DNA of 20,585 bases, taken from NCBI GenBank assembly GCA_043804695.1, contig JAZDIV010000100.1:1-20585 (forward strand), in the 5' to 3' direction. Under the pieces are notes generated by a model. It made no database searches, was not told the DNA's origin, and saw nothing but the letters and a program-made list of their open reading frames with translations. Positions 1 to 20,476 of the stretch are shown piece after piece (positions within the stretch are counted from its first letter, which is position 1; every line of letters begins with the position of its first letter). Both the position numbers and the translations under genes were made by a program. This DNA comes from PVC group bacterium (GTDB lineage Bacteria; Auribacterota; Erginobacteria; Erginobacterales; Erginobacteraceae).

Positions 1-86
1 GATATTAGGATTTAGGATTTCCTGCTCAAAAACCTTTTCGAACAGGGTCATGCTAACTTGCTGCTTCGGAATTTTTCTGAAATTCA

Positions 87-1304: not shown

Positions 1305-1345
1305 TATTACGCTTCCGCGTTTTCCCCTGCCCAGGGCCATTTTTT

Positions 1346-1384
1346 ATCCGACCGATCAGTCAGATCGGTCGGATCAGACAGATC
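1346..1384. repeat. Intergenic 9-bp-period repeat forming a perfect 12-bp hairpin
   Basis: GATCAGTCA-GATCGGTCG-GATCAGACA-GATC; ATCCGACCGATC (1346-1357) pairs with GATCGGTCGGAT (1363-1374). Confidence 0.8.
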
Positions 1385-2275: not shown

Positions 2276-2320
2276 CCAGGGCTGACGCCCTTTGCTATTG
2301 TCTGTCGCCCCTTCGGGGCT
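2276..2320. repeat. REP-like double hairpin flanked by degenerate 7-mer repeats
   Basis: AGGGC-TGAC-GCCCT (2278-2291) and GCCCC-TTC-GGGGC (2307-2319; GAA loop on the minus strand). 7-mer periodicity at 2232-2262 and 2333-2359. Confidence 0.65.
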
Positions 2321-3932: not shown

Positions 3933-3995
3933 TGTCGTCACCTCGCTCGCAGATTATTGTTTTTAGTACCTTCAACAAGAGACATCTCGACCGAT

Positions 3996-4172
3996 AAATT
4001 AGCTCCCTTCGGTGCAACTTTTAGCCACTAAGACTCCAAAACACCAAGAAAAACCAAATTAAGGTGAGTAGTATGCTCTTTTTTACTTTTCTTGGTGCCT
4101 TTGTGCCTTGGTGGCTAATAATTATTGTGCGCCAGAGGCGCATCAGCCTCGGGCTGAAAATACCAAAGCAGT
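3996..4172 (-). repeat. Composite intergenic element: GAA hairpin, inverted 9-mer repeat arms, palindromes and end motif
   Basis: Minus-strand hairpin AAGTTGCACC-GAA-GGGAGCTAATTT (3996-4020). Inverted arms TTAGCCACTAAGACTCCAAAACACCAAGAAAA and TTTTCTTGGTGCCTTTGTGCCTTGGTGGCTAA. 4146-4172 matches 13361-13387 at 24/27 nt. Confidence 0.7.
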
Positions 4173-4175
4173 CAA

Positions 4176-4751
4176 TCAGGTGCTGCAACAATCGATTACA
4201 CGCTCCTCCGTGATGACCGCGTCCACCGCCACATCATGATGAGCGGCGGGGATGCGATTGACCACCTGACACTCGAACGCCAGAGCGATCTTGGAAGCGC
4301 CCGGGCGAATCTTCTTCAGAAAAGCGTCGTAATATGCCTCCCCCATGCCCAGCCGGTTGCCGGCCGGGTCAAAAGCGATGCCGGGGACGATGACCAGGTC
4401 CAGTTCCGCCGGCGCCACTTCTTCCGCCCGGCCGGGGACCGGCTCTGGAATACCCCGGAAACCGGGGGCGAGATCCCCTTCGGGATCTCGAATAAGCATC
4501 GCCCGCAGATTTCTCTCCGCGACCCGGGTAAGGGGTACAGCGATCCGGCGCCCTTCCCGAAGCGCCCTGCTTATCATCCGGCCGGTATGAACTTCACTAC
4601 CGCGGGACACATAGAACATGACCGTCCCGGCGTCCCGGTAATCCGGGCGGCCCCGGAGACTTTCGGCAATGACCCGGCTTTTTAACAGAATCTCCTCCCG
4701 GGTCAGAGCATTCCTCCTCCGGAGTATTTCCGATCTGATACTGCGCTTCAT
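4176..4751 (-). CDS. 5-formyltetrahydrofolate cyclo-ligase (YgfA/Fau family)
   Basis: DLVIVPGIAFD..GNRLG.G..YYD, HDVAVDAVITE and GIPEP motifs; ATGA overlap with the rarA stop. Confidence 0.93.
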   Translation of the reverse strand: MKRSIRSEILRRRNALTREEILLKSRVIAESLRGRPDYRDAGTVMFYVSRGSEVHTGRMISRALREGRRIAVPLTRVAERNLRAMLIRDPEGDLAPGFRGIPEPVPGRAEEVAPAELDLVIVPGIAFDPAGNRLGMGEAYYDAFLKKIRPGASKIALAFECQVVNRIPAAHHDVAVDAVITEERVIDCCST

Positions 4752-6073
4752 TTCTCCACCGAAGAATCCGATTTGAAGGTCTTCATCCTTTTCCGGATAA
4801 CAGCCTCATCGCCGCGATCGGTCGGAAAATAGTATTTTTTCCCGATCTGCAGATAGCTCTGTTCGACCCACCCCCCCGGGTAATCGTGAGGGTAGAGATA
4901 CCGGTCCTTTTCTTCCCGCGGATTTTTCCCTCCGGCGGGAACATTCTTGAGCCGGGGCGGAACCGGCTGGACCGGACCGGCATCGATATCATGGAGCGCA
5001 TTTTTCAAGCCCAGATAGGAGGCGTTGCTCTTGGGGGCGGCCGCCAGATAGATCGCCGCCTGGGCCAGGGCCAGTTCTCCTTCCGGCATCCCGACGTACT
5101 CGACCGCCCGGGCCGCGTTTATTGCCAGGGCGAGGGCGGCGGGGTCGGCATTGCCGATATCCTCGGAAGCCAGGATGACGAGCCTTCGGGCGATAAAGCG
5201 CTCATCCTCCCCCCCCCTGATCATCTTGGCCAGCCAGTACAGGGCCGCGTCCGGATCGCTACCGCGCACGCTCTTGATAAAAGCTGAGATGGTGTCATAG
5301 TGCTCATCCCCCTCCCGGTCATAGGAGATGAGCTTCTTTTGAGCGGCTTCCGCCACGGCCTCCGGCGTGACGGTTATCATCCCCGAGGAATCGGGCCGGG
5401 CGGTGGCGACCGCCAGCTCCAGTGTATTCAGGGCGCGGCGGGCGTCGCCCTCGCCGATCCTGATCAGGCTCGAGATCGCGTCATCCGTCGCCGCGGCGCG
5501 ATACCTTCCCAGGCCGCGCTCCCGATCGGAGAGGGCCTGTTCGACGATGCGCCTGATCGTGTCCGGGGAGAGCGCCTGAAACTGAAAAAGCTGCGACCGC
5601 GAGAGCAGGGCGGGAGCCATGGCGTGGAACGGGTTGCTGGTGGTAATTCCGATGAAAGAAATGGTCCCGTCTTCAATGGAGGGCAGGAGCACTTCCTGCT
5701 GGGCGCGGTTGAAGCGGTGAAACTCGTCCACGAAAAGCAGGGTTCCCGAGCCGGCATTGGCCCGGCGGTTGCGAGCCCCGGCGATCACTTCCTTGACCCG
5801 GGCGACGTTCGAGGTGACGGCGCTGAGGGTGACGAAGCAGGACCGGGTGGTCGATCCGATGATCTGCACCAGGCTGGTCTTTCCCGAACCGGGAGGGCCG
5901 AAAAAGATCGCGGAGCCGATCCGGTCTTCCTCGATCAGCCGGCGCAGGAGCCTCCCGCTGCCGAGGAGGCTTTCCTGGCCGGCCATTTCGGAGAGGGAAC
6001 GCGGCCGCATCCGGAAGGCGAGCGGGACGTGTTTCTGATCGGCCGGTGCCGTTTCGTCCGTGAAAAGATCCAT
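4748..6073 (-). CDS. rarA: Replication-associated recombination protein A (RarA/MgsA AAA+ ATPase)
   Basis: PLAFRMRP, Walker A GPPGSGKT, Walker B FVDEFHRFN, HYDTISAFIKSVRGSDPDAALYWLA and SEDIGNADP. Start placed at ATG 6073. Confidence 0.96.
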   Translation of the reverse strand: MDLFTDETAPADQKHVPLAFRMRPRSLSEMAGQESLLGSGRLLRRLIEEDRIGSAIFFGPPGSGKTSLVQIIGSTTRSCFVTLSAVTSNVARVKEVIAGARNRRANAGSGTLLFVDEFHRFNRAQQEVLLPSIEDGTISFIGITTSNPFHAMAPALLSRSQLFQFQALSPDTIRRIVEQALSDRERGLGRYRAAATDDAISSLIRIGEGDARRALNTLELAVATARPDSSGMITVTPEAVAEAAQKKLISYDREGDEHYDTISAFIKSVRGSDPDAALYWLAKMIRGGEDERFIARRLVILASEDIGNADPAALALAINAARAVEYVGMPEGELALAQAAIYLAAAPKSNASYLGLKNALHDIDAGPVQPVPPRLKNVPAGGKNPREEKDRYLYPHDYPGGWVEQSYLQIGKKYYFPTDRGDEAVIRKRMKTFKSDSSVEK

Positions 6074-6111
6074 AAAAAAAGCCCTGCCCGACAACAGCGG
6101 TTGGGCAGGGC
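6074..6111 (-). terminator. Rho-independent terminator
   Basis: Minus strand GCCCTGCCCAAC-(loop)-GTCGGGCAGGGC followed by a 7-nt T tract. Confidence 0.75.
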
Positions 6112-6116
6112 AACGT

Positions 6117-6332
6117 CCGGTAAAGGGCCGAAAACGGGGCGGAGACAGAAAATTATCCGATCATGTTACAACCAAACCCGGTGTCTGGATTCCTGTCCTG
6201 TTCACGTTTTGGACCCTGAATGCGATGATCTACGTCGAAATCAGCAAAATGGTTGTGCTGAGAAGTGTTCGCGAATACCCGGTTGCTGCCTTTTCCGCGG
6301 CCGCGCCCCCACCTTTTTTCAGCCCTTCCCGG
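6117..6332 (-). ncRNA. ssrS: Probable 6S RNA (long rod-like ncRNA)
   Basis: The ends pair: CCGG/CCGG, AAGGGCTGAAAA/TTTTCGGCCCTT, GGGGCG/CGCCCC, CGGAAAA/TTTTCTG and GCAACC/GGTTGT. About 215 nt, followed by a terminator, and lying between pheT and the 5-FCL/rny genes where ssrS is commonly found. Not confirmed by a covariance model. Confidence 0.55.
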
Positions 6333-6379
6333 GAGCGGGCGGCCGCTTAACCGCCTGTCGAAGCGTTCGATACGACTGT

Positions 6380-8779
6380 TTACCTGAAACTGCAGCCCAG
6401 CGCCTGAATCAGCAATTCCTGGAACCCGGCGTGGACCTTATTTACCTTTGTTTCACAAAGAGTATCATATGACGAACGATATTTCAAGCTGAAGGCGAAA
6501 CTTTTTTTTCCCTCTGGAATCGGGTCCCCGGAATAGAGATCGAAGAGGGCGTACTCCTCCAGAAGCTCGGGACGGTGAGCCTCGATCGCTTCTTTCACGG
6601 ATTGATAGGGGACCGACTCGTCGATGACCAGGGCCATGTCCCGCCGGACCGCCGGGTACTGATCCGGGCTCCGGAACCGGGGAACGCCGGCCGGCGCCTC
6701 CAGAAAGGGCCGCATCTCCAGTTCGGCCAGGAAGACGGGCGACGGGATCGAATAGCTGTCGAGCACGGCGGCGGCGACCGTGCCGGCGACCCCGGCCACG
6801 GTCTTCCCGATCAGCAGCCGGGCGCTCTGTCCGGCCTGAAAAACGGGGTGAGCCGCCGGGACGCTGATCATTTCCGCCGTCCCCATCCGCTCCCCCAGTA
6901 GCTCCAGCATGCCTTTCAGGGTGTAGAAATCGAGGGCCGGCTCGGGCCGGCACCAGTCCGGCTTATCGGGGCGCCTCCAGAGAGCGAGGGAGAGCAGGGT
7001 CCGCTCCCCGGGGGGCGCGGGCTCTTCGCTGCTGAAGACTTTTCCCAGTTCGAAGATCCTGACCTGAGTGAGCTTCTGATTCAGGTTCCTCTCCACGGTC
7101 TCCAGCAGCCCCGGGATCAGGGTTGTTCTCAGCAGGCCCTGTTCCTTGTTGACCGGATTGGAAATCCGGCAGGCCCGGCGGAGCGGGTCTTCCGCGGGGA
7201 GCAGCAGGCGGTCCAGGGACTTGGGGGCCATGAAACTGTAGGTGATGACCTCGTCCAGACCGAGACCGCAGAGGATCTCCCTGATCCGGTCCGCGACGAT
7301 CTGTCCGGGGGATCTCTTCCGGTAGGTTATCCGGCTGACCGGCATCACCGCGGGGATGCGGTCAAAGCCCGCGATCCGCGCGACTTCCTCGATCAGGTCA
7401 ACTTCCCTGGTCAGGTCCGGCCGCCAGGTCGGAACGGAAAAAGTAAGCCGGTCTTCTTCCTGCTTTTCCCGTTTCAGGCCCAGGCGGGAGAGCGATTCCG
7501 TTATCGCTTCGGGGGCCGGGGCCCAGCCCAGGAGATGGTTGGTCCGGGAAGGGCGGAGGGCAACCGTGCCGGGAGGGAAGTCATCGCGCTTCTCGTCGAT
7601 GCGCCCCTCCGCCACCGAGCCTCCGGCCAGATCGAGGATCAGCCCGGCGGTCCGGTCAAGGGCGAGGGGAGCAGCCCGGGGATCCGCCCCCCGCTCAAAC
7701 CTCCGCGAGGCTTCCGTGCTTATCCCCAGCATCCGGGAGGTGCGGCGGATGCCGACCGGGGCGAAATAGGCGCTCTCCAGGAGGATGGCGGTGGTGGCAT
7801 CGCCGATCTCGGAGAAGAGCCCCCCCATGACGCCGGCGACCGCCACCGGTTTTTCCGCGTCGGCGATAACCAGCATGGAGGGGTGGAGCTGCCGCTCATC
7901 TCCATCGATGGTGACGATGCTCTCTCCTGCGGCGGCGGCGCGGACGATGATCTTTTGGCCGGCCAGCCGCTGAAGATCGAACGCGTGCAGGGGATGGCCC
8001 AGCTCGAGAAGCGCGTAGTTGGTGGCGTCGACCACGTTGTTGACCGGCTTGATCCCGCAGAGGGACAGCCGCCGCCGGATCGGGAAGGGGCTCTCCGTGA
8101 TCCGGACCCCCCGGATCAGACGAGCGCAGTACCGGGGACAGAGCGAGAAGTCCCTGACGGTCACCGAGGTTTCCTTTCCGATCGGAGGAGCCGTCTCCGG
8201 CAAAACCGTCTCCCGCTCGGACATTTTCTGTCCGGTCAGAGCGGCGATGTCCCGGGCGACTCCCCGGACGCTCAACAGGTCGGGCCGGTTGGGGGTAACG
8301 TCGATATCGAGGATAACATCAGCCAGTTCCAGCGCCTTTTCCAGCGGTAGTCCGGCCTGAAGACCGGGGGGGAGTTCCATAATGCCCCGATCGTTTTCGC
8401 CCAGATCCAGCTCTTTCTCCGAGCAGAGAACGGCCTCCGAGACCCGGCCGCCGATCTTTCTTTGCTCAATCCCGACCCCCCCGGCCAGCACCCCGCCCGG
8501 GAGGGCGACCGCGGTGAGGAGTCCCGGCGACACGTTGGGGGCCGCGCAGAGGGTGGTCACCTCCCGCGCGCCGATATCCACCCGGCACCAGGTCCATCCC
8601 GGTTTCCCGGCGGCCGGGTCGAGGGAAACAATCAGTCCCGTGACCACCCCGGTGAAGGAGGGGCGGATCCGCTCCACCCGGTCCACTTCCACGCCGGCGA
8701 GCGTCAGCCGGTCGGCCAGCGCGGCGGGGTCAAGCTCGATCGGAACAAACTCCTTTAACCAGTTATAACTTACCTTCAT
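6380..8779 (-). CDS. pheT: Phenylalanine--tRNA ligase beta subunit
   Basis: MKVSYNWLKEFV, IDVTPNRPD, NNVVDATNY, GHPLHAFD, RFERG, DLIEEVARI and a C-terminal FDX-ACB domain. Confidence 0.98.
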   Translation of the reverse strand: MKVSYNWLKEFVPIELDPAALADRLTLAGVEVDRVERIRPSFTGVVTGLIVSLDPAAGKPGWTWCRVDIGAREVTTLCAAPNVSPGLLTAVALPGGVLAGGVGIEQRKIGGRVSEAVLCSEKELDLGENDRGIMELPPGLQAGLPLEKALELADVILDIDVTPNRPDLLSVRGVARDIAALTGQKMSERETVLPETAPPIGKETSVTVRDFSLCPRYCARLIRGVRITESPFPIRRRLSLCGIKPVNNVVDATNYALLELGHPLHAFDLQRLAGQKIIVRAAAAGESIVTIDGDERQLHPSMLVIADAEKPVAVAGVMGGLFSEIGDATTAILLESAYFAPVGIRRTSRMLGISTEASRRFERGADPRAAPLALDRTAGLILDLAGGSVAEGRIDEKRDDFPPGTVALRPSRTNHLLGWAPAPEAITESLSRLGLKREKQEEDRLTFSVPTWRPDLTREVDLIEEVARIAGFDRIPAVMPVSRITYRKRSPGQIVADRIREILCGLGLDEVITYSFMAPKSLDRLLLPAEDPLRRACRISNPVNKEQGLLRTTLIPGLLETVERNLNQKLTQVRIFELGKVFSSEEPAPPGERTLLSLALWRRPDKPDWCRPEPALDFYTLKGMLELLGERMGTAEMISVPAAHPVFQAGQSARLLIGKTVAGVAGTVAAAVLDSYSIPSPVFLAELEMRPFLEAPAGVPRFRSPDQYPAVRRDMALVIDESVPYQSVKEAIEAHRPELLEEYALFDLYSGDPIPEGKKSFAFSLKYRSSYDTLCETKVNKVHAGFQELLIQALGCSFR

Positions 8780-8808
8780 AAATTAGCTCGCTGCGCTCGC
8801 AAATTTAT
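8778..8808 (-). repeat. GCA-triloop / tandem-GA hairpin overlapping the pheT start
   Basis: ATAAATT-T-GC-GA-GC-GCA-GC-GA-GC-T-AATTTAT(G). Confidence 0.75.
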
Positions 8809-8812
8809 ACTG

Positions 8813-8841
8813 GCCTCCCCGACTGATTCAGTCGGGGAGGC
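8813..8841. repeat. Perfect palindrome in the pheS-pheT spacer
   Basis: GCCTCCCCGACTGA-T-TCAGTCGGGGAGGC (14-bp arms). Confidence 0.85.
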
Positions 8842-8963
8842 TGCTGGTTAAACTGAAATAAATTAATCGAGGCAACAAGATAAAAAAGCCTTTTAAAATT
8901 TTACCAGCGTTTTCCCCCGGGGATAAAATTTTTCTATTGGCATGAATCAAACCATTCTAATTT

Positions 8964-8990
8964 TTATCCCCCGATGCAATCGGGGGATAA
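8964..8990. repeat. Perfect palindrome directly after the pheS stop
   Basis: TTATCCCCCGAT-GCA-ATCGGGGGATAA. Confidence 0.85.
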
Positions 8991-8993
8991 GAA

Positions 8994-10013
8994 TTAGAAC
9001 TGATGCAGAAACCGCAGGTCGTTCTCGAAGAAGAGCCGGATATCGTCTATCCCGTGCTTGAGCATGGCGATCCGCTCGATGCCCATGCCGAAGGCAAAGC
9101 CGGTGTATGTCTCGGGATCGTAGCCGACCGCCCGAAAGACTTCCGGATCAACCATCCCCGCGCCCAGGATCTCAAGCCATCCCCGCCGCGAACAGAGCTG
9201 GCACCCGGCGCCGCCGCACACCACGCAGGAGATATCGACCTCCGCGCTCGGTTCGGTGAAGGGGAAGAAACTGGGACGGAAACGGAGCCGGGTCTTTTCT
9301 CCGAACAGCTGCCGGGCAAAAGCTGTCAGGACCCCCTTCAATTCCGCCAGGGTGACCCGGGTGTCGACCATCAGGCCCTCCAGCTGATGAAACATCGGCG
9401 AGTGCGAGGCGTCCGCCGTGTCGGCCCGGAAGGCCTTGCCGGCGCAGATCATGCGCAGGGGCGGCTGTTGCTTCTCCATGGTCCTGATCTGAACCGGAGA
9501 AGTGTGGGTTCGAAGAACGATCCCCGGACGGAGGTAGAGCGTGTCCTGCATGTCCCGGGCCGGGTGGTCGAGGGGCATGTTCAGGGCGTCGAAGTTGTAA
9601 TACTCGGTCTCAATCTCGGGGCCTTCCTCCAGCTTGAATCCCAGGCCGGAGAAGATGTCGATTATTTCATTCAGGGTGGAGGTGACCGGGTGACATCGGC
9701 CCCGGCGGAAAGAAACGCCGGGGAGGGTGACATCGATCGCCTCTTCCCTGATCTTCTTTTCGGCTTCCCGCTCCCGGAGAACTTCCCGCGCCCGGTCGAA
9801 GCGGTTCTGGAGTTCGGTTTTCAGCCGGTTAATCGATTCCCCCATCCGGGGCCGATCGGCGGGAGGAAGCATCACGATTGACCGGGTAAGCGCCGTCAGC
9901 CGGCCTTTCCGCCCCAGGTAAACGACCCGGGCGTTTTCCAGCGCCTCCTCGTCGGCGGCGGACTCCAGATCGATGGTCGCCTCGCGCTCTACCTGCTGGA
10001 GTTCTTTTTCCAT
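8994..10013 (-). CDS. pheS: Phenylalanine--tRNA ligase alpha subunit
   Basis: NFDALN...HPARDMQDT, LRTHTSPVQ, FHQLEGL, RFRPSFFPFTEPS and GFAFGMGIERIAML. Confidence 0.98.
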   Translation of the reverse strand: MEKELQQVEREATIDLESAADEEALENARVVYLGRKGRLTALTRSIVMLPPADRPRMGESINRLKTELQNRFDRAREVLREREAEKKIREEAIDVTLPGVSFRRGRCHPVTSTLNEIIDIFSGLGFKLEEGPEIETEYYNFDALNMPLDHPARDMQDTLYLRPGIVLRTHTSPVQIRTMEKQQPPLRMICAGKAFRADTADASHSPMFHQLEGLMVDTRVTLAELKGVLTAFARQLFGEKTRLRFRPSFFPFTEPSAEVDISCVVCGGAGCQLCSRRGWLEILGAGMVDPEVFRAVGYDPETYTGFAFGMGIERIAMLKHGIDDIRLFFENDLRFLHQF

Positions 10014-10030
10014 CTCACGGGTACCCCGGG

Positions 10031-10387
10031 TTAAGCGGCGGTTTCCCTGACCGACTGAACGAACCGGGAGAAGGCATCGGGGTGATGAACGGCCAGGTCG
10101 GACATGATCTTGCGGTTGATGACTATCCCGGCTTTTCCGATCATCCCCATGAAGCGGGAATAAGAAATCCCTTCCCGGCTGACACCGGCCCGGATCCGGG
10201 TCACCCAGAGAGCGCGGAAATCGCGTTTCCGCTGCTTGCGTCCGCGGTATGACTGCGCCATGGAACGCATGACCGCTTCCCGCGCGGTCCGATGAAGTTT
10301 ACCCCTTCCCCCCCGGAAGCCTTTGGCCTGTTGCCGGATCTTCTTCCGGCGGCGGTGTCCGGCCGGTGCTGTTTTAACTCGTGTCAT
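10031..10387 (-). CDS. rplT: 50S ribosomal protein L20
   Basis: MTRVK, AKGFRG and RKQRKRDFRALWVTRI; RBS GAGGAG. Confidence 0.97.
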   Translation of the reverse strand: MTRVKTAPAGHRRRKKIRQQAKGFRGGRGKLHRTAREAVMRSMAQSYRGRKQRKRDFRALWVTRIRAGVSREGISYSRFMGMIGKAGIVINRKIMSDLAVHHPDAFSRFVQSVRETAA

Positions 10388-10559
10388 GATTGCTCCTCAT
10401 TGCCATGTGGCGCCTGCGGGCAAACGGTCCCGGCCACGGATTGGCGGGGTCGGGCGTTCATGTGCAGCCGCGGCAGGCTGATTGAAGTCTGCGGTTCTCG
10501 GCGGTTTCGCGCGTGGCGCATGATTTCGGTTGACAGGGACAATTCAAGAAGCGGCCGGG

Positions 10560-10748
10560 CTATAGGAACCGCTTGATCTTCCTGGCCGTGGTCCCTCCCA
10601 GGGTTCTCTCGGTGCGGAGCCTTCTCTTCCGCTTGCGGTTTTTGGTGGTCAGGAGGTGGCTCTTCCCCGCTCGCTTGATCTGAACTTTTCCCCCCTTGGT
10701 GACTTTGATCCTCTTCCGGATTCCTTTTTTGCTCTTTAGCTTTGGCAT
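10560..10748 (-). CDS. rpmI: 50S ribosomal protein L35
   Basis: MPKLKSKKG..KRIKVT..GK and SHLLTTK; synteny infC-rpmI-rplT. Confidence 0.96.
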   Translation of the reverse strand: MPKLKSKKGIRKRIKVTKGGKVQIKRAGKSHLLTTKNRKRKRRLRTERTLGGTTARKIKRFL

Positions 10749-10963
10749 AATACTAACTCCCTGATAATTTCTGTTTTAACCGGCAACGATCGCGGCAAGT
10801 GAACTATTCATTCCACCGACCTGTATCCCGGGGCGCAACCGGCGGTGGCTTTTCCGGCCCTCCATCCCCGCCGCCCGGTGACGGAAAAATCCCGGGACGG
10901 TCTTCGGCCCGAGCCGGTCCCGGGGCCGGAGGAAATGCCGTCGGTAAGGGGGAGAGTCCCTCT

Positions 10964-11491
10964 TCAGGTTTTATGAGATCGCGGATTGACGGGGCTGAGA
11001 ACGGTGGTCAGGCGCCGGCCCATCATCCGGGCACCGCCTTCGAGGGTGCCGTGCTCTTTCAGATCAGCGATCATCCGGTCGATTATCTGGCGTCCCAGGT
11101 CCTGGCGGATCATCTCCCGGCCGCGGAAAGCCAGGGTCAGCCGCAGTTTATCCCCCCGCTGTAAAAATTCAACCGCCTTGCGCAGCTTGACCTGGTAATC
11201 GTGCTCTTCGATCCGGGATTTCAGCTTGATCTCCTTCAGTCGTCCGGCGTGCTGCTGTTTCTTCCCCTCTTTCTCCCGCTTGCTCAATTCGTATTTGTAT
11301 TTTCCGTAATCGAGAATGCGGCAGACCGGGGGAACCGACTGCGGCGACACGCAGACCAGATCAAGCTCTCTTTCCCGGGCCAGGTTCAGCGCCTCCGGGA
11401 GCAACAGTATCCCCAGCTGGGTCCCGTCCGTGTCAATGGTTCTGACTTTATTGGCACGGATGTCATTGTTGATAAAAATGTGGTTGAGAAT
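10964..11491 (-). CDS. infC: Translation initiation factor IF-3 (ATT start)
   Basis: The frame extends upstream of the ORF-track start (INNDIRANKVRTID..G.QLGI) to ATT at 11491, preceded by TAAGGAGGTGAT (11497-11508). Motifs PPVCRILDYGKYKYE and FRGREM. Confidence 0.95.
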   Translation of the reverse strand: MLNHIFINNDIRANKVRTIDTDGTQLGILLLPEALNLARERELDLVCVSPQSVPPVCRILDYGKYKYELSKREKEGKKQQHAGRLKEIKLKSRIEEHDYQVKLRKAVEFLQRGDKLRLTLAFRGREMIRQDLGRQIIDRMIADLKEHGTLEGGARMMGRRLTTVLSPVNPRSHKT

Positions 11492-11508
11492 CGCCGATCA
11501 CCTCCTTA

Positions 11509-11539
11509 TTAAATTAGCTCACTGCGTTCGCAAATTTAA
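11509..11539 (-). repeat. GCA-triloop / tandem-GA hairpin abutting the infC Shine-Dalgarno
   Basis: TTAAATT-T-GC-GA-AC-GCA-GT-GA-GC-T-AATTTAA. Confidence 0.75.
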
Positions 11540-11557
11540 AAGTTCTCTGTAAAAAAT

Positions 11558-13279
11558 TTAAACCCGATCCTGAATTTCCTGTTTCAACGTCTCGAGGCAT
11601 TTTTCGACGGGCCAATCGCCCAGCTGCCCCTTTTTCATGCTCCGGACCGAGACGGTCCCCGCGCCGGCCTCCGCCGGACCCGCCACCAGCAGGTAGGGGA
11701 TCCGTTCCAGCCGGGCCGAACGGATCTTGTAACCGATCTTCTCGTTGCGCTCGTCCAGATCAACCAGGAGTCCGGCCGCTTCCAGCCTGGTCCGGATCTC
11801 CCGCGCGTAGTCGATGGTTTTTTCGGAGATGGGCAGGACGATGGCCTGAACCGGCGCCAGCCAGAGGGGGAGCAGCCCCCCGTAATGCTCAAGCAGAATG
11901 GCCAGAAAACGTTCGATCGACCCGAAGGCCGCCCGGTGAATCATGACCGGCCGGTGCTTCCGTCCGTCCGCCCCCACGTATTCCAGACCGAACCGCTCCG
12001 GCATCGAGAAATCAAGCTGAATCGTCCCGCACTGATGGCTCCGCTTCAGGCAGTCCCGGATATGAAAATCGATCTTCGGCCCGTAAAAGGCCCCCTCCCC
12101 TTCGCTGACCGAGTAGGAGCTGCCGTTCTGATCGAGCGCTCGGCGCAGGCTCGCGGTAGCCAGCTCCCAGTCATCGTCGCTCCCGATCGAAGACTCGGGC
12201 CGGGTGGAAATCTCGATCTCGAACTCGTCAAAGCCCAGCGTCCGGTAGATCGAGAGAATCAGGTCGATCACCTTCATTATCTCGCCCGTGATTTGCTCCG
12301 GGAGGCAGAAGATATGAGCGTCATCGATGACGAAGCTCTGAACCCGGAAGAGGCCGTGAAGCACCCCCGTCATCTCCCGGCGGTACACCCGGCCCAGTTC
12401 GGCGATCCTGAGGGGGAACTCCCGGTAGGAATGCTGGTTCTCCTTGTAATAGAGAAGGGTGCCGGGGCAGTTCATCGGCTTGACGGCGAACGTTTGCTCC
12501 CCGACCGCGCTCAGGTACATGTGATCCCGATAGTGTTCCCAGTGTCCGCTCCGGTGCCAGAGTTCATCGCGGAGAATGAGCGGCGTCATGATCTCCTGAT
12601 AGCCGTGCCGTCGGTGAACGTCCCGCCAGAAATCGAGCAGCGTCCGGTAAAGAACGGTCCCCCGGGGATGAAAGAAAGGAACCCCCGGGGATTCTTCGTG
12701 GAAGCTGAATAGATTCATCTCCCGTCCCAACCGGCGATGATCTCTCTTCTTTGCTTCCTCGATCCCGGCCAGATAGTGGAGGAGGGCTTTGCCGTCCGGA
12801 AAAGCCGTGGCATAGATCCGCTGCAGCATCGGGCGCTGCTCATCGCCTTTCCAGTAGGCGCCCGCCACGCTCAGAAGCTTGAAAGCTTTGATCTCCCCGG
12901 GATGCTCCAGGGTGGGCCCGCGGCAGAGGTCGATGAAATCCCCGGTGCGGTAAATGCTGATCGTCTCGTCTTTTAGTCCTTCCAGCAGTTCCAGCTTGTA
13001 TGTTTCTCCCTGCCGGCCGAGGAGAGCTTTCCCCTCTTCAAAAGAGAGTTCCTGGCGCTGAAAAGGATGATCGGTATCGATGATCCTCCGCATCTCCTCT
13101 TCAATCCGGTCGAAATCCTCCGGGGTCAGGGTCCGGGCCAGGTCGAAGTCGTAATAGAAGCCGTCTTCGATCGGGGGGCCGATCCCCAGTTTTGCGTCCG
13201 GGAAGAGGCGTTTCACCGCCTGGGCCATCACGTGCGCCGCGCTGTGGCGATACCGGTCCAGAAATTCTCTATCTTCCAT
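11558..13279 (-). CDS. thrS: Threonine--tRNA ligase (short form lacking the N1/TGS domain)
   Basis: RHSAAHVMAQA, GFYYDF, DLCRGP, RDHRRLG, KPMNCP, GAFYGPKID, IHRA..GSIERF and anticodon-binding domain. ATG at 13279; the ORF-track extension runs into a repeat. Confidence 0.97.
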   Translation of the reverse strand: MEDREFLDRYRHSAAHVMAQAVKRLFPDAKLGIGPPIEDGFYYDFDLARTLTPEDFDRIEEEMRRIIDTDHPFQRQELSFEEGKALLGRQGETYKLELLEGLKDETISIYRTGDFIDLCRGPTLEHPGEIKAFKLLSVAGAYWKGDEQRPMLQRIYATAFPDGKALLHYLAGIEEAKKRDHRRLGREMNLFSFHEESPGVPFFHPRGTVLYRTLLDFWRDVHRRHGYQEIMTPLILRDELWHRSGHWEHYRDHMYLSAVGEQTFAVKPMNCPGTLLYYKENQHSYREFPLRIAELGRVYRREMTGVLHGLFRVQSFVIDDAHIFCLPEQITGEIMKVIDLILSIYRTLGFDEFEIEISTRPESSIGSDDDWELATASLRRALDQNGSSYSVSEGEGAFYGPKIDFHIRDCLKRSHQCGTIQLDFSMPERFGLEYVGADGRKHRPVMIHRAAFGSIERFLAILLEHYGGLLPLWLAPVQAIVLPISEKTIDYAREIRTRLEAAGLLVDLDERNEKIGYKIRSARLERIPYLLVAGPAEAGAGTVSVRSMKKGQLGDWPVEKCLETLKQEIQDRV

Positions 13280-13287
13280 AAAAAGGG

Positions 13288-13412
13288 ACTTAGCCCTCAC
13301 TTCGTTCGGGCAACGTTCTGAAGTGCCTAAAGTGCCTAAAGTTTTCAGCCTCTGGCTGAAGCCTCAGGCTGAAAATTCCGAAGCAGTAAAATTAGCTCGT
13401 TTCGTTCATAAG
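13288..13412 (-). repeat. Composite intergenic element between tRNA-Val and thrS
   Basis: Hairpin GCCC-GA-AC-GAA-GT-GA-GGGC, 9-mer AAGTGCCTA x2, CAGCC..GGCTG palindromes, AAAATTCCGAAGCAGT, and a degenerate second hairpin at 13389-13412. 13288-13333 matches 17098-17143 at 45/46 nt. Confidence 0.8.
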
Positions 13413-13440
13413 TATATTATTTTACGAAGTAAAAATAATA

Positions 13441-13515
13441 TGGGCGATACTGGACTCGAACCAGCGACCTCTACGATGTCAACGTAGCGCTCTAACCAGG
13501 CTGAGCTAATCGCCC
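13441..13515 (-). tRNA. tRNA-Val(GAC)
   Basis: Acceptor stem GGGCGAT/ATCGCCC plus discriminator A; D arm GCTC..GAGC; anticodon arm CTACG-TT-GAC-AT-CGTAG; T arm GCTGG-TTCGAGT-CCAGT. CCA is not encoded. Confidence 0.97.
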
Positions 13516-13544
13516 CTAAAATTTTTCCTTCGGAAAAACTTTAT

Positions 13545-13587
13545 TTTATATAGTCTGCCCTACCTATTTTCAATATAAATATTGAAA
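13545..13587 (-). promoter_or_regulatory. Candidate sigma70 promoter for tRNA-Val/thrS, overlapped by a palindrome
   Basis: TTGAAA-N17-TATAAA on the minus strand; inverted repeat TTTCAATAT-AA-ATATTGAAA (13568-13587) covers the -35. Confidence 0.5.
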
Positions 13588-13650
13588 TTCCGAAGCAGCA
13601 AGGATGGCACGCTCCCGCCGCCGCCGGCGGACCGGATGAAAAAACAGGAC

Positions 13651-13700
13651 CGGAAAGAAAGGGGATGCCCGGCCGGATTCATCCACTCCGGGCATCCCCT
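13651..13700 (-). terminator. Probable Rho-independent terminator after the small membrane-protein gene
   Basis: AGGGGATGCCCGG-(loop)-CCGGGCATCCCCT followed by TTCTTT on the minus strand. Confidence 0.6.
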
Positions 13701-13763
13701 GCTCTCTCCGGTCCTGCGCGCATTTGTTGATAACCGGCGCGGCTGCAACGAGGACGGCGGCGG

Positions 13764-13913
13764 TCAGTTCGTCCGCTCCTCTTTCTCCGCCCCGCTCTCT
13801 CCGGGGCCCGGTGTCCCGTCGGTGGCCGCTCCGCAGGAACAGGATCGGTTGGCAATCAGGTAGACAACAATGATCGCGACGATCGCGACGATAAAAATCC
13901 ATACTATACCCAT
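13764..13913 (-). CDS. Small single-pass membrane protein, 49 aa, with CxC after the TM helix
   Basis: Strong SD AGGAGGTG 7 nt before ATG 13913; MGIVWIFIVAIVAIIVVYLIANRSCSCG...; downstream terminator. Confidence 0.7.
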   Translation of the reverse strand: MGIVWIFIVAIVAIIVVYLIANRSCSCGAATDGTPGPGESGAEKEERTN

Positions 13914-13999
13914 GGCAAAGCACCTCCTGCAGTTAACCAGCCGGCGCAACCCGCCAGCGGAGACCTCTCATAAACCATTTTTGGGTGGCCTGAACCTGT

Positions 14000-16900
14000 C
14001 TACCGGCAGGCAGGGCGACCAGTGCGAGGGGTATTGTCCCGACAATTATCGGGAAACCCCGAAACAGAATTCATTGTGAGCTCCAGGGTAACATCCGCCA
14101 CCGGCGGTGTCAAGATAATCTGCCGGCAGACGATCACCAGGGCGCCGTCGTTGACCTGGACCAGCCCCCGGACGTAGAACGGACCGGAAGAAACAAGGTG
14201 ATGACCGAAGCGGGCGTAGCAGTCCGGGAAAAGGATGACCTCGAAAAGACCGGCGGCATCCTCCAGGGTAAGGAATTTCATCAGTCTCCTGTCACCCCGG
14301 GTCCTGACCAGCCGGCTGGTCACCGGACTCCCGATCATCTGCACTTCCCTGCCCGCCCAGAGAAGCAGCTCATCCGCCCTGATCAGGGGAAGACCCGGGA
14401 CAAGGTTTTGCAGTTTCCGCGCACAGTCCTCTGCTTCCGGCGGGAGGAGGGAGAAGCCCATCCCGCCCGCCTCGTCTTCGCGCCGGGGTATGGAATTCTC
14501 GATCAGGCGGGGGAGCGGCGGCCCCGACTCCTCCCGGAAAGAGGGGAAGAGAGGATCGGGGGGAGATGCCCTTCTTCCCCCGGCGAGATGCCAGGCCAGC
14601 GCGGCCCGGCCGGGCCCCAGGGAAGCGAGGGCGCCGCTCCGGATCAGGGACGCGCATTCGCCGGCGTCGGGCCGGACCCGGCAGAGGAAATCCTCCCAGG
14701 AGGAGAACGGCCGCTCTTTTTGTCCGGCCAGGATTCGGCGGGCGGCGGGGATACCCAGGTTCTTGATCTCCATCAGCCCGATCCGGATCCCCTCCCCTTC
14801 CGCCCGGCAGTGATCGCCGCTCCGGTTGACGTCGGGAGGATGAATCTTCAGCCCCATCCGCCGGGCTTCCTGAACGTATTCCCCGGTCGGGTAGAACCCT
14901 CCCCGGCGGGAGATCAGGGCCGCCATGAACCGCGCCGGGTAATGGGCTTTCAGGTAAGCGGTCTGAAATGAAAGGCGGGCGAAGGAAGCGCTGTGGGCCT
15001 TGCAGAAGGCATAGGACGCAAACCCCTCGATCTGCCGCCAGAGTTCGGCCGCGGTTTTTTCCGGGATGCGGTTCGCCGTCGCTCCCCGGAGAAACCGCGC
15101 CCGGTAATTCTCCAGCGCCTGCCCGCCCGGCTTCTTACTCATGCAGCGGCGAAACTCATCGGCGTCGGCCGGGCTCATCCCGGCCGCCTCGCTCACCACC
15201 CGCATCACCTGCTCCTGATAGATCATCACCCCGCAAGTCTCGTCCAGGATCGCGTCCACCAGGGGGTGGATGGGAACCGGCTTCTCCCGACCCCGGCGGC
15301 GGGCGATATACCGCTCGGCGCAGCCGGTATTGGAAACCCCGGGCCGGATGACGGAGCTGGCCGCGACCAGGGTCTCGAAGTCACGGCAGCGCAGCCGTTT
15401 CAGGAGAGAGCGCATCACCGGGGACTCGATGTAGAAACAGCCGACGGTCCGCCCGGCCGCGATCAGGTCCCCGGTCGCGCGGTCCCCCGCCGGGTCGATC
15501 GCCTCCAGATCGAGCCGGCGCCCGCTTGTCCTGACCTCCCGGACCACGTCTTCCACCACCGCCAGGGCGCGCTGCCCGAGGATGTCGATCTTGAGCAGCC
15601 CCAGCTGCTTCACGCTGTACATATCGGGCTGGGTGACGGCGATCCCCTTGGCCGCCCGCTCCAGGGCCAGGTAACGGGTGAGCGGTTCCGGGGCGATCAC
15701 CACCCCGCTGGGGTGAACGGAGAGATGGTGGGGGAGCCCTTCCAGCCGGCCGGCGAGGCGCACGAGGTCCCGGAACCGGGGCTCTCCCCAGGGAAGGCTC
15801 CGGCATTCCGGCACTTCCCGGCGCAGCCGGTCCGGGTCCCGCAGGCTGGCGAAATACGGGAGATGCCGCGTCAGGCGGCGGGCTCCGGCTTCTCCCAGCC
15901 CCATCGCCCGCGCCGTCTCCCCCAGCGCCGATCGGGCCCGGAAACGGACCGTGGTCGAGAGGGTCGCGACCCGGTCGGGCCCGAAACGCCGGTAGATCCA
16001 TTCGATCACCTCTTCCCGCCGGTGGGTGGGGAAATCGAGGTCGATATCCGGCGGGTCCGTCCGTCCGGCGTTGAGAAAGCGCTCGAAGTAGAGGTTGTGC
16101 CGGAGCGGATCCACCCCGGTCAGCCCCAGCAGGTAACAGACCAGGCTGTTGGCGGCCGAGCCGCGGCCGAGGAGGGGGATCCCCCGCCGGCGCGCAAAGC
16201 GGGCGATCTCCTCCACCAGGAGGAAATAATCGGCCATCCCCAGGGCGACGATCACCGCCAGTTCTTTTTGCAGCCGTTCCCGGAGGCGGGGAGGAGCGGT
16301 CCGGTAGCGCCGGCGAACGCCTCTCCGGCAGAGGGCCCGCAGCCGCTCCCCGGCCGTCTCCCCCGGCGGGAGCGGGTAGCGGGGCAGGCGGAGGCGCCCC
16401 AGTTCCAGTTCCACTCCGCACCCGTCCGCGATCCGCCGGGCGGCCGCCCGCGCCGCCGGATAATCATCCCAAAAACGGGGGTCAGACCTTGTTTTTCCCG
16501 TATCGGGCGTTGCCTCCCCGGCAGTGCGGGCCCGGATCGCGGCGAGGAGGCGGAAAAGCGGGTCATCGGCCCGGTCCGGGAAGTGGAGATCATTGGCGGC
16601 GGCGAGAACGATCCGATGCGATTCGGCCGCCCGCGACAGTTCTCGCATCCGTCGGGCCGACATCCCGGGAGTGAGCTCCAGGAAACAAGTCGGCGGGGCC
16701 GGGGAAGGGACAAGTTCCGGGTGGGCGGTGAGGATGAAGACATCCTCTCCCGCCTCCCGGACCGCCCCGACCAGCGAGAAATCGTCCGCCAGGTGCCGGG
16801 CGGTGGTCAGCTCGCAGATCCGCTCCCAGCCGCCCCGGTTGCGGGCCAGCAAGACCGCCCGGCGTTCCCTCCCCCCGGGGGACGGTTTCTCCGTCAGTTC

Positions 16901-17092
16901 CACGCCCAGGATAGGCTTGATCCCCGTCTCCCGGCAGGCCCGGTAGAACTCCACCGCGCCATAGATGCCGTCCCGGTCGGTCAGGGCCAGCGCGCCCATT
17001 CTTCGCTCCGCTGCCCCCAGCGCGAGTTCCGCCGGAGAGGCGGTCCCCCGGAGAAACGAGTAATAGCTGTGGCAGTGAAGATGCGGGAACAT
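14000..17092 (-). CDS. dnaE2: DNA polymerase III alpha-family protein, DnaE2-like (probably error-prone/accessory)
   Basis: PHP domain (HLHCHS, TDRDG), GRGSAANSLVCY, catalytic PPDIDLDF and KIDILG, HLSVHPSG, FCKAHSASF and C-terminal OB fold. About 1030 aa with no tau-binding CTD. SAAN, FCKAH and the length fit DnaE2-like rather than replicative DnaE. Confidence 0.85.
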   Translation of the reverse strand: MFPHLHCHSYYSFLRGTASPAELALGAAERRMGALALTDRDGIYGAVEFYRACRETGIKPILGVELTEKPSPGGRERRAVLLARNRGGWERICELTTARHLADDFSLVGAVREAGEDVFILTAHPELVPSPAPPTCFLELTPGMSARRMRELSRAAESHRIVLAAANDLHFPDRADDPLFRLLAAIRARTAGEATPDTGKTRSDPRFWDDYPAARAAARRIADGCGVELELGRLRLPRYPLPPGETAGERLRALCRRGVRRRYRTAPPRLRERLQKELAVIVALGMADYFLLVEEIARFARRRGIPLLGRGSAANSLVCYLLGLTGVDPLRHNLYFERFLNAGRTDPPDIDLDFPTHRREEVIEWIYRRFGPDRVATLSTTVRFRARSALGETARAMGLGEAGARRLTRHLPYFASLRDPDRLRREVPECRSLPWGEPRFRDLVRLAGRLEGLPHHLSVHPSGVVIAPEPLTRYLALERAAKGIAVTQPDMYSVKQLGLLKIDILGQRALAVVEDVVREVRTSGRRLDLEAIDPAGDRATGDLIAAGRTVGCFYIESPVMRSLLKRLRCRDFETLVAASSVIRPGVSNTGCAERYIARRRGREKPVPIHPLVDAILDETCGVMIYQEQVMRVVSEAAGMSPADADEFRRCMSKKPGGQALENYRARFLRGATANRIPEKTAAELWRQIEGFASYAFCKAHSASFARLSFQTAYLKAHYPARFMAALISRRGGFYPTGEYVQEARRMGLKIHPPDVNRSGDHCRAEGEGIRIGLMEIKNLGIPAARRILAGQKERPFSSWEDFLCRVRPDAGECASLIRSGALASLGPGRAALAWHLAGGRRASPPDPLFPSFREESGPPLPRLIENSIPRREDEAGGMGFSLLPPEAEDCARKLQNLVPGLPLIRADELLLWAGREVQMIGSPVTSRLVRTRGDRRLMKFLTLEDAAGLFEVILFPDCYARFGHHLVSSGPFYVRGLVQVNDGALVIVCRQIILTPPVADVTLELTMNSVSGFPDNCRDNTPRTGRPACR

Positions 17093-17097
17093 GTAGA

Positions 17098-17229
17098 ACT
17101 TAGCTCTCACTTCGTTCGGGCAACGTTCTGAAGTGCCTAAAGTTAAAAAATTCCTCATCGCCACCGGAGTGGAAACGCTATATTGTTTAGTATTTTGACA
17201 GTTATTAAAATTCCGAATGAGTAAATTAG
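17098..17229 (-). repeat. Composite element upstream of dnaE2
   Basis: 46-bp near-copy of the thrS upstream element (17098-17143), plus AAAATTCCGAATGAGTAAATTAG (17207-17229) resembling AAAATTCCGAAGCAGTAAAATTAG (13372-13395). Confidence 0.75.
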
Positions 17230-19790: not shown

Positions 19791-19824
19791 TTGACATCTG
19801 GCGTGACTCATGCCATATTATGGC
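19791..19824 (+). promoter_or_regulatory. sigma70 promoter and candidate operator of the TA operon
   Basis: TTGACA (19791-19796)-N17-CATATT (19814-19819) with an extended TG; palindrome GCCAT-ATT-ATGGC (19812-19824) overlaps the -10. Confidence 0.7.
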
Positions 19825-19828
19825 CACA

Positions 19829-20122
19829 ATGACATATCGGATCACATTGTCGCCGCAAACAAGGACACAGTTCCATAACCTTTCTGCTTACGACAGGGCG
19901 AAAGTGCGAGACGCGATTGACGACCATCTCCAGCATCGTCCGACGGTAGAAAGCAAGAGCCGGATCAAGCGACTGCGGGACTTGAAGAAGCCGCAATACC
20001 GGCTTCGCGTGGGCGACCTCCGTGTTTTCTATGACGTCGAGGAAGCTCAGGTGATTGTCCATGGCGTCGTTGACAAGACACATGCGGAGGAATGGCTCGC
20101 GGAAATAGGAGAACGAACATGA
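19829..20122 (+). CDS. RelE/ParE-family type II toxin
   Basis: MTYRITLS, SRIKRLR and YRLRVGDLRVFYDV. ATG 19829 is favoured because ATG 19820 abuts the -10 box. Confidence 0.88.
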   Translation: MTYRITLSPQTRTQFHNLSAYDRAKVRDAIDDHLQHRPTVESKSRIKRLRDLKKPQYRLRVGDLRVFYDVEEAQVIVHGVVDKTHAEEWLAEIGERT

Positions 20123-20379
20123 AAAAAGTTGCATTTGCCGAAGTCAGAGACCACCTCTCAAGATATCTTGTTGAGGCGAGTGAAGAGCAGATCGTCATTA
20201 CAAAACACGGGAAGCCGGCGGGTGTTCTCAGCGGCTTCGCGACCGAGGACGACTGGTTCGACTTTCGTCTGGAGAATGACCCTAGGTTTCTGAAGAAAAT
20301 CGAGGAATCAAGAGCCAGTATTCGCGCCGGTCAAGGCATTCCCTGGGAACGCGTCAAGAAGGAAGACGATGAGCGGTAA
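20119..20379 (+). CDS. Phd/YefM-family antitoxin
   Basis: MKKVAFAEVRDHLSRYL..EEQIVITKHGKPAGVL; ATGA overlap with the toxin stop; SD AGGAG. Confidence 0.9.
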   Translation: MKKVAFAEVRDHLSRYLVEASEEQIVITKHGKPAGVLSGFATEDDWFDFRLENDPRFLKKIEESRASIRAGQGIPWERVKKEDDER

Positions 20380-20398
20380 TAGTTTAGCACGCCCATAT

Positions 20399-20476
20399 TG
20401 GCCATATTGGGGTCAAATCTTTCCTCTTGACAATTGGTGGCCATATTGGGGTCAAATCTTTCCTCTTGACAATTGG
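20399..20476. repeat. Exact 39-bp tandem duplication containing the end of the adjacent gene
   Basis: TGGCCATATTGGGGTCAAATCTTTCCTCTTGACAATTGG at 20399-20437 and 20438-20476, with a partial CCATATTGG at 20393. Confidence 0.92.

Follow-up and report, generated by a model that had tools for sequence, protein, structure and literature searches.

What is the role of a short motif that recurs ahead of core genes in an uncultured bacterium? We addressed this question for contig JAZDIV010000100.1 of a PVC group bacterium, a stretch of 20,585 nt that we refer to as the window. A sequence-only reading of this DNA had described a small hairpin, with a GNA triloop and tandem G.A pairs, upstream of five minus-strand genes (pheT, infC, thrS, a dnaE-family polymerase gene and rny). 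It had proposed two roles for this hairpin: a strand-specific single-stranded DNA (ssDNA) site or a translational control element. The motif is real and its recurrence is confirmed. We tentatively favor a somewhat different role: that of a lineage-specific (Candidatus Auribacterota-like) interspersed repeat, similar to repetitive extragenic palindromic (REP) elements, which is transcribed in sense in leaders and spacers and probably affects translation initiation or mRNA stability. As part of this explanation, the motif would be one module of a short intergenic repeat family and not a regulator dedicated to these five genes.

Six copies of the motif lie in intergenic DNA on one strand

All six copies were found where the sequence-only reading had placed them, on the minus strand, and CTAA follows the palindrome in 6/6. 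Their coordinates, and their scores with a covariance model that we call R1, are as follows.

8779..8807 (core 8786-8800), minus strand: pheT copy, GC-GA-GC-GCA-GC-GA-GC, 42.6 bits
11510..11538 (core 11517-11531), minus strand: infC copy, 42.7 bits
13290..13313 (core 13293-13311), minus strand: thrS copy, long type, GCCC-GA-AC-GAA-GT-GA-GGGC plus CTAA, 32.4 bits
17100..17123 (core 17103-17121), minus strand: dnaE copy, long type with one stem mismatch, 34.6 bits
3999..4017 (core 4002-4015), minus strand: rny copy, GC-A-CC-GAA-GG-GA-GC plus CTAA, 38.5 bits
13392..13411, minus strand: decayed copy, sequence kept (CGAAACGAGCTAA) without a foldable stem, 33.1 bits

The layout is a 4-nt head, an imperfect palindrome of 15-19 nt and the CTAA tail. 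On the strand that carries the G.A pairs the head is GTTG in three copies, TTTG in two and CTTA in one; on the other strand it is TTAG. We distinguished a short subtype (pheT, infC, rny and the decayed copy) from a long one (thrS and dnaE), between which the distance from TTGC to the end of CTAA differs by 4 nt. The 3' half (GAG...CTAA) and the G and A of the loop are invariant across copies, and C-G-N-A-G is retained in five of the six, the decayed copy having A for the closing G. The pheT copy is a 29-nt imperfect palindrome that ends on the first base of the pheT ATG (8779), and the infC copy matches it at 27/29 positions. Because the thrS and dnaE copies are embedded in near-identical 46-nt repeats (13288-13333 and 17098-17143; 98% identity), we counted these two copies as one event and not as independent. 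The 46-nt repeat, on the minus strand at both places, is itself an imperfect palindrome.

Recurrence is well above expectation. The heptamer GAGCTAA occurs six times against 1.22 expected, a count reached by 0/100 shuffles; one of these matches is on the plus strand within a tRNA, and the thrS copy, which reads GAGGGCTAA, is outside this count. The degenerate core CG-N-A-NN-GAG-(0-2)-CTAA was present in intergenic DNA six times on the minus strand and never on the plus strand, with 0.01 expected (0/2000 shuffles). R1 was built from the six copies themselves and so necessarily recovers them; it scored them at 32-43 bits, and the next match in the window on either strand reached 11 bits. All six copies are intergenic, a density of six per 20.6 kb, and intergenic DNA makes up 2,974 nt (14%) of the window.

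The closest named relatives of ThrS, PheT and DnaE are proteins from metagenome-assembled genomes labelled Candidatus Auribacterota or Candidatus Erginobacter (61-76% identity), and unnamed relatives reach 73-87%; Auribacterota is a candidate phylum of the PVC group. R1 had no match at E<=10 in 1,353,533 nt from 80 loci of other phyla. These control loci are among the matches listed for a 34-sequence alignment of the PheT clade, at 34-44% identity, and none belongs to the clade. As far as tested on these 80 other-phylum loci, the motif is lineage-restricted. We also read the N-terminally extended protein calls of relatives as upstream DNA. PheT gave none, and in DnaE none reaches the motif. 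For ThrS, 5/32 relatives read have an extension, and only P0003 (...VAPKALSSLFMDD) is compatible with the motif, in a degenerate reading. A similarity search of plasmid and phage sequences with 13280-13420 gave no match.

The copies are sense-oriented and some abut start codons

The minus strand holds nearly all genes of the window, and 6/6 copies are sense-oriented to their neighboring genes. The infC and pheT copies sit in intercistronic spacers, the former in the 62-66 nt between thrS and infC, and a sigma-70-like promoter at 17281-17253 would put the dnaE copy about 130-150 nt into its transcript. This context makes it very likely that transcription reads the copies in sense. From the end of CTAA to the start codon we measured 3 nt (pheT), 7 nt (dnaE), 10 nt (thrS), 22 nt (infC) and 66 nt (rny). 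The decayed copy is located 29 nt past tRNA-Val and 112 nt ahead of thrS. The earlier description of the motif as upstream of five genes is confirmed only in part and has to be corrected accordingly. tRNA-Val has a promoter-like site of its own, TTGAAA-17-TATAAA, near 13575-13547.

The starts of pheT, thrS (ATG at 13279) and the dnaE-family gene (ATG at 17092) had been described as lacking a strong Shine-Dalgarno (SD) sequence, and this was borne out: none has a well-spaced SD-like sequence. The most SD-like sequence of thrS and dnaE, GTGAG(G) at 14 nt from the start, belongs to the motif itself. When copies were placed at random inside their own spacers, about 1% of the placements put at least three of them 10 nt or less from a start (three seen against 0.57 expected). 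The spacers of the three start-proximal copies span 160-346 nt. Three other SD-poor genes, xseA, the YmdB-like gene and rarA, are without the motif.

We took the infC start (11489-11510, minus strand) to be ATT, four bases behind a 12-nt perfect SD, AAGGAGGTGATC. The rny start was taken as ATG 3932 behind the SD GAGGTGA; a GTG at 3941 is only the earliest start codon of that frame. A 15-codon upstream open reading frame (ORF) at 3940-3987 (minus strand) has its TGA inside the rny SD, and the rny copy lies 11 nt ahead of this ORF.

Evidence that the motif folds

The imperfect palindrome is present in 5/6 copies, with only 4-6 Watson-Crick pairs around the tandem G.A. The GNA loop is closed by 5'-C...G-3' on a GC stem, so that by sequence the motif belongs with the DNA mini-hairpins; exact GCGCAGC is found in the pheT copy and CCGAAGG in the rny copy. 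In the alignment, 85.7% of cells are paired in a structure-pair count. Covariation of the stem had been claimed, and compensatory change is indeed present: both differences between the pheT and infC copies are the partners of one predicted pair (columns 13-19, G-C to A-T), and the rny copy has C-G at this varying pair. Across the six copies these columns hold AU in three, GC in one and CG in one, and are unpaired in one. In the long type the outer stem is extended by an inserted CC in its 5' strand and by GG, or GA in dnaE, in its 3' strand. However, the covariation is thin, in that one of six pairs changes on both sides and 37/500 shuffles are as good.

With 8-10 nt of flanking sequence, 4/6 minimum-energy folds hold the hairpin together with a lower stem. 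In the extended fold of pheT (-8.4 kcal/mol) the lower AU stem takes in the AUG, and the extended lower stem of infC reaches the first bases of its SD. We searched for a long-range pairing partner of the motif within +/-200 nt and found none better than shuffles; a candidate long-range helix at pheT was rejected, as 15% of shuffles equalled it. We conclude that pairing has probably been selected, on thin evidence that does not tell RNA from DNA as the folded molecule. The hairpin is plausible as a structure, and weakly supported.

The copies look like a dispersed repeat family

Four features make the copies look like a dispersed repeat family rather than operators of particular genes. There are six of them in 20.6 kb, two are nearly identical, one is stemless with no adjacent start codon, and they occur together with other recurring modules. 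One of these modules, which we call module B (TT[GA]CTGCTTCGGAATTT), usually lies directly past CTAA or a stop codon.

13368..13389, minus strand: module B1 (TTTTACTGCTTCGGAATTTT...), second repeat family
13580-13601, minus strand: module B copy
17203-17224, minus strand: module B copy
~4155-4175, minus strand: module B copy
56-78, plus strand: module B copy

When <=3 mismatches are allowed, its core CTGCTTCGGAATTT has six matches where 2.19 are expected. The plus strand carries one of the six; another, at 14054-14067 (three mismatches), is inside dnaE and was excluded as a copy. Against the reverse complement of the short type, as represented by the infC copy, four of the five module B copies scored 9-11 and the remaining one, B4, scored 6 (shuffled, 5.6 +/- 1.2). 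Against the long type the scores were only 4-7. Module B is not itself palindromic, and RNA duplexes between it and the motif had energies no better than shuffles. Tentatively, module B may be related to the motif as a diverged, inverted form of it. When its minus strand is read, the plus-strand copy stops 1 nt short of ATG 51, which starts a partial ORF past xseA.

Further elements complete a mosaic. A TTTAGGCAC repeat occurs three times in the window, and thrS, dnaE and rny share one upstream arrangement: module B, hairpin, AGGCAC, motif. A direct repeat, GAAC-N7-GAAC, is present three times against 0.79 expected and lies in the 46-nt repeat of thrS and dnaE. We take it to resemble the direct-repeat type of LexA box, which is of interest before a possible error-prone polymerase. 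The spacer between MTHFS and rny contains a long, very stable hairpin (4014-4126, minus strand; region fold z -4.0) and AAGGCAC twice. This hairpin gave a sub-threshold, microRNA-precursor-like Rfam match (37 bits, E 1.6e-4) that probably reflects hairpin shape only. The spacer between pheS and pheT (8780-8993, minus strand) is AT-rich and 214 nt long, which is unusual where both genes encode subunits of a single enzyme. Three strong hairpins lie within it (-82.8 kcal/mol, z -6.1).

Comparison with known elements

Pneumococcal BOX elements are mosaic intergenic elements. The motif is like them in consisting of modular short repeats in leaders and spacers, and BOX elements fold in the transcript and can alter the expression of neighbors; BOX modules, however, are longer and apparently unrelated in sequence. 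Structured SD-independent initiation regions and translational operators are a second point of comparison, with the E. coli rpsA leader, the thrS operator and phage coat-protein operators as examples. Shared with these are a hairpin 5' of the start or including it, followed by an AU-rich single strand, and no usable SD. There is no homology of sequence or structure, and unlike them the motif precedes genes that have no relation to one another, keeps no constant distance from them and can also be present without a start codon.

A third comparison is with REP elements, REP doublets (REPINs) and bacterial interspersed mosaic elements (BIMEs). As far as the available portions of PMC3686654, PMC3337134 and PMC3116915 describe them, these are about 20-35 nt in length, reach high local numbers and lie almost exclusively between genes; they consist of a head and an imperfect palindrome, form subfamilies and mosaics with other short modules, and are recognized as single-stranded hairpins by RAYT (HUH Y1) nucleases. 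The motif resembles them in size and layout, and 6/6 copies are intergenic at high local density. In REP elements a conserved 5' tetranucleotide, GT(A/G)G, precedes the palindromic region, and the enzyme known for REP-type repeats is an HUH nuclease (PMC3686654, in part). DNA mini-hairpins of the GCGNAGC class share the C-GNA-G triloop and sheared G.A pairs. They occur at single-strand initiation (ssi) sites, at phage G4-type origins and in the hairpin promoter used by the phage N4 virion RNA polymerase (available sections of PMC13037366 and PMC3201870). Those are single sites on phage or plasmid ssDNA, unlike the six chromosomal copies in housekeeping leaders seen here, which have no replication or phage context.

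Several other identities were considered and set aside. Rfam, including its T-box, L20 leader and thrS-type leader families, gave no match over any copy at the gathering score or at E<=5. None of nine sigma-70 promoter-like sites coincides with a copy, and the spacing from TTGC to TAA is variable at 11-15 nt against the 16-18 nt required. The geometries generally known for alternative sigma factors (the -24/-12 type and the extracytoplasmic function type) misfit in spacing or sequence. None of 25 intrinsic terminator-like sites coincides with a copy, the motif tail being TAATTT or TAAGT. An upstream ORF or leader peptide was rejected because the frames differ between subtypes; a mini-ORF that runs from a TTG to the motif TAA is confined to the long type (thrS, dnaE). 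A LexA-type direct repeat was rejected as an explanation for the family because it is found only in the thrS/dnaE repeat.

Proposed mechanism and its weak points

We propose that the copies arose by a copying process at the DNA level, for which an enzyme specific for single-stranded hairpins is one possible agent. Each copy would now lie inside a probable transcript, in a leader or an intercistronic spacer and in sense orientation, so the sense strand would be able to fold into a compact irregular hairpin. From its base upward, this predicted structure would comprise a lower AU stem, a U.U mismatch, GC pairs, the tandem G.A, two further pairs and the GNA loop. Placed at the 5' edge of the translation-initiation region, it would most likely modulate ribosome access or mRNA stability. 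At pheT, thrS and dnaE, which have no usable SD, it may delimit an AU-rich landing site.

A number of observations weigh against this proposal. The evidence comes from one 20.6-kb window, with no loci of relatives from the clade. The likeness to REP elements is incomplete: the head is GTTG or TTTG and not GT(A/G)G; the palindrome is much weaker, its 4-6 Watson-Crick pairs being broken by the tandem G.A; there are no clear inverted doublets as in REPINs, all six copies having one orientation; no RAYT gene is present in the window; and known REPs usually lie 3' of genes, unlike the copies found 3-10 nt before start codons. These start distances also vary widely (3, 7, 10, 22, 66 and 112 nt), and infC and rny have a strong SD of their own. 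Formal covariation is weak, as described above.

The energetics are likewise unfavorable. As RNA, the bare hairpin is no better than shuffles in 5/6 copies; it is not the minimum-energy fold in infC and dnaE, the decayed copy folds at 0 kcal/mol, and only that of thrS stands out (-8.0 kcal/mol, z -2.2, 5/200 shuffles as good). With DNA parameters, none of the six copies stands out from shuffles. For the extended folds, z scores are only -0.6 to -1.1, and lower-stem pairing, at 33/60 (shuffled, 25.9 +/- 3.7), is equalled by sliding one base (35/60). According to the available text of PMC13037366, the stability of DNA mini-hairpins is missed by conventional thermodynamic models and their RNA counterparts are much less stable. 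The latter point weakens the RNA-level step of our proposal.

Should the motif prove to be a dispersed repeat, Candidatus Auribacterota, an uncultured phylum of the PVC group, would gain its first described family of this kind, and with it a handle on the copying enzyme. The opening parts of abstracts in the literature mentioning Candidatus Auribacterota contain no description of such a repeat family. If it acts at start sites, it would show initiation or co-regulation of core genes without an SD in this lineage. Either way, annotators should expect the motif in leaders and should call no ORFs from its TTG or GTG.

Alternative explanations

The alternative that fares best, though we regard it as unlikely, is a dedicated post-transcriptional operator: a hairpin in the leader RNA of thrS, infC, pheT, dnaE and rny, bound by one trans-acting protein or small RNA that co-regulates these genes, and not a mobile or neutral repeat. 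The sense orientation of 6/6 copies, the three of six that lie within 10 nt of SD-less starts (p ~0.01), and a predicted extended stem that covers the pheT AUG and abuts the infC SD, taking in its first bases, support both this operator and the translational control proposed in the sequence-only reading; the weak covariation counts against the latter as stated. The invariant 3' half and loop G and A, together with the compensatory differences, also argue for an operator. On the other hand, a regulon that took in five of some eight transcription units of an arbitrary window would be very dense, and the 98%-identical 46-nt pair and the decayed copy, which lacks a start codon, resemble repeat dynamics. 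Spacing to the start ranges from 3 to 66 nt, and the hairpins are energetically weak.

Somewhat more doubtful is a purely DNA-level role, in which the motif is a strand-specific single-stranded hairpin serving as the substrate of a RAYT or other HUH nuclease, or as a priming or hairpin-promoter signal, with any effect on genes incidental. The closeness to start codons would then arise because AT-rich sequence is the preferred target in a genome that is otherwise GC-rich. The motif is on the G-rich strand, which by the usual skew rule is exposed as the lagging-strand template. Plus-strand GC skew is negative in 15/19 windows across this DNA. As the motif lies on a strand that is at once G-rich and coding, a bias due to replication is inseparable here from one due to transcription. 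The ssDNA site envisaged in the sequence-only reading finds support in the C-GNA-G loop, the G.A pairs, the REP-like dynamics and a closing C-G pair that is invariant in all but the decayed copy. In DNA, a C-GNA-G loop combined with sheared G.A pairs is exceptionally stable, far more so than in RNA, and GCGCAGC (pheT) and CCGAAGG (rny) belong to mini-hairpin classes described in the accessible part of PMC13037366. Against such a site are the weak covariation, the lack of an HUH/RAYT gene, a transposon or other element end, or an origin in the window, and the absence of the GT(A/G)G head. Chance would hardly place three copies 3-10 nt ahead of starts in spacers of 160-346 nt. Folds with DNA parameters are weak, although such parameters may miss mini-hairpin stability (PMC13037366, in part).

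A more speculative combination, to which we give little weight, is a domesticated REP-like hairpin repeat that has become either an SD-independent start-site element or a phylum-specific post-transcriptional operator of core genes (thrS, infC, pheT, the dnaE-family polymerase gene and rny). It would be read through its tandem G.A/GNA-triloop hairpin by a dedicated protein.

We consider it improbable that the motif is a double-stranded DNA site, either a transcription-factor operator with direct half-sites (GARC-N5-GAGC) or part of an alternative-sigma promoter. Such a site would account for a sequence that is conserved more than its structure, with an invariant 3' half, and for AT-rich flanks that resemble -10 boxes in 4/6 copies; the GAAC-N7-GAAC repeat of thrS/dnaE (three against 0.79 expected) could also be accommodated. 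The 4-nt change in TTGC-CTAA distance between subtypes, however, is unlike a fixed promoter geometry, and sigma-70 promoters lie elsewhere in the window, none on a copy. The pheT copy overlaps the ATG and therefore cannot be the pheT promoter, and the matched CC/GG insertion is explained by pairing and not by protein contacts. Chance resemblance among AT-rich intergenic sequences (50% A+T against 38% overall), to which the slid lower-stem control might point, is effectively refuted by six copies against 0.01 expected, by scores of 32-43 bits against 11 and by the absence of matches in 1.35 Mb of control DNA.

Gene context and other features of the window

The window has a G+C content of 61.6% and contains the following genes.

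minus strand: xseA, YmdB-like phosphoesterase gene, rny
minus strand: MTHFS, rarA
minus strand: thrS-infC-rpmI-rplT-pheS-pheT cluster with tRNA-Val
minus strand: small ORF and gene for a 1030-aa dnaE-family polymerase
plus strand: PQQ-repeat protein gene; ParE/Phd pair

The polymerase gene had been labelled dnaE2, an assignment that we could not uphold: it scores 633.7 bits with the error-prone NCBIfam model and 633.4 bits with the replicative one, and neither score reaches the cutoff. Downstream of dnaE, past the small ORF, a long GC-rich hairpin followed by a T run (13633-13726, minus strand) is probably the terminator of the operon. ThrS (11558-13279, minus strand) is 573 aa long and, like its relatives in the clade, is without the N-terminal TGS domain (no PF02824); Firmicutes ThrS homologues, of about 635 aa, have this domain. 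A perfect 12-bp hairpin (1345-1375, minus strand) ends 5 nt ahead of the ATG of xseA, which is without an SD. Antisense to the spacer between rny and ymdB, we found an Acido-Lenti-1 RNA motif (2277-2320, plus strand; 44.3 bits, gathering score 37), and this match includes a GCCCC-TTC-GGGGC stem followed by a T run. At 19791-20476 (plus strand) a ParE-like toxin is paired with a Phd/YefM antitoxin, and a near-consensus promoter, TTGACA-17-CATATT, ends at the start codon. The pair is followed by a perfect 39-nt tandem duplication at 20399-20476 (plus strand).

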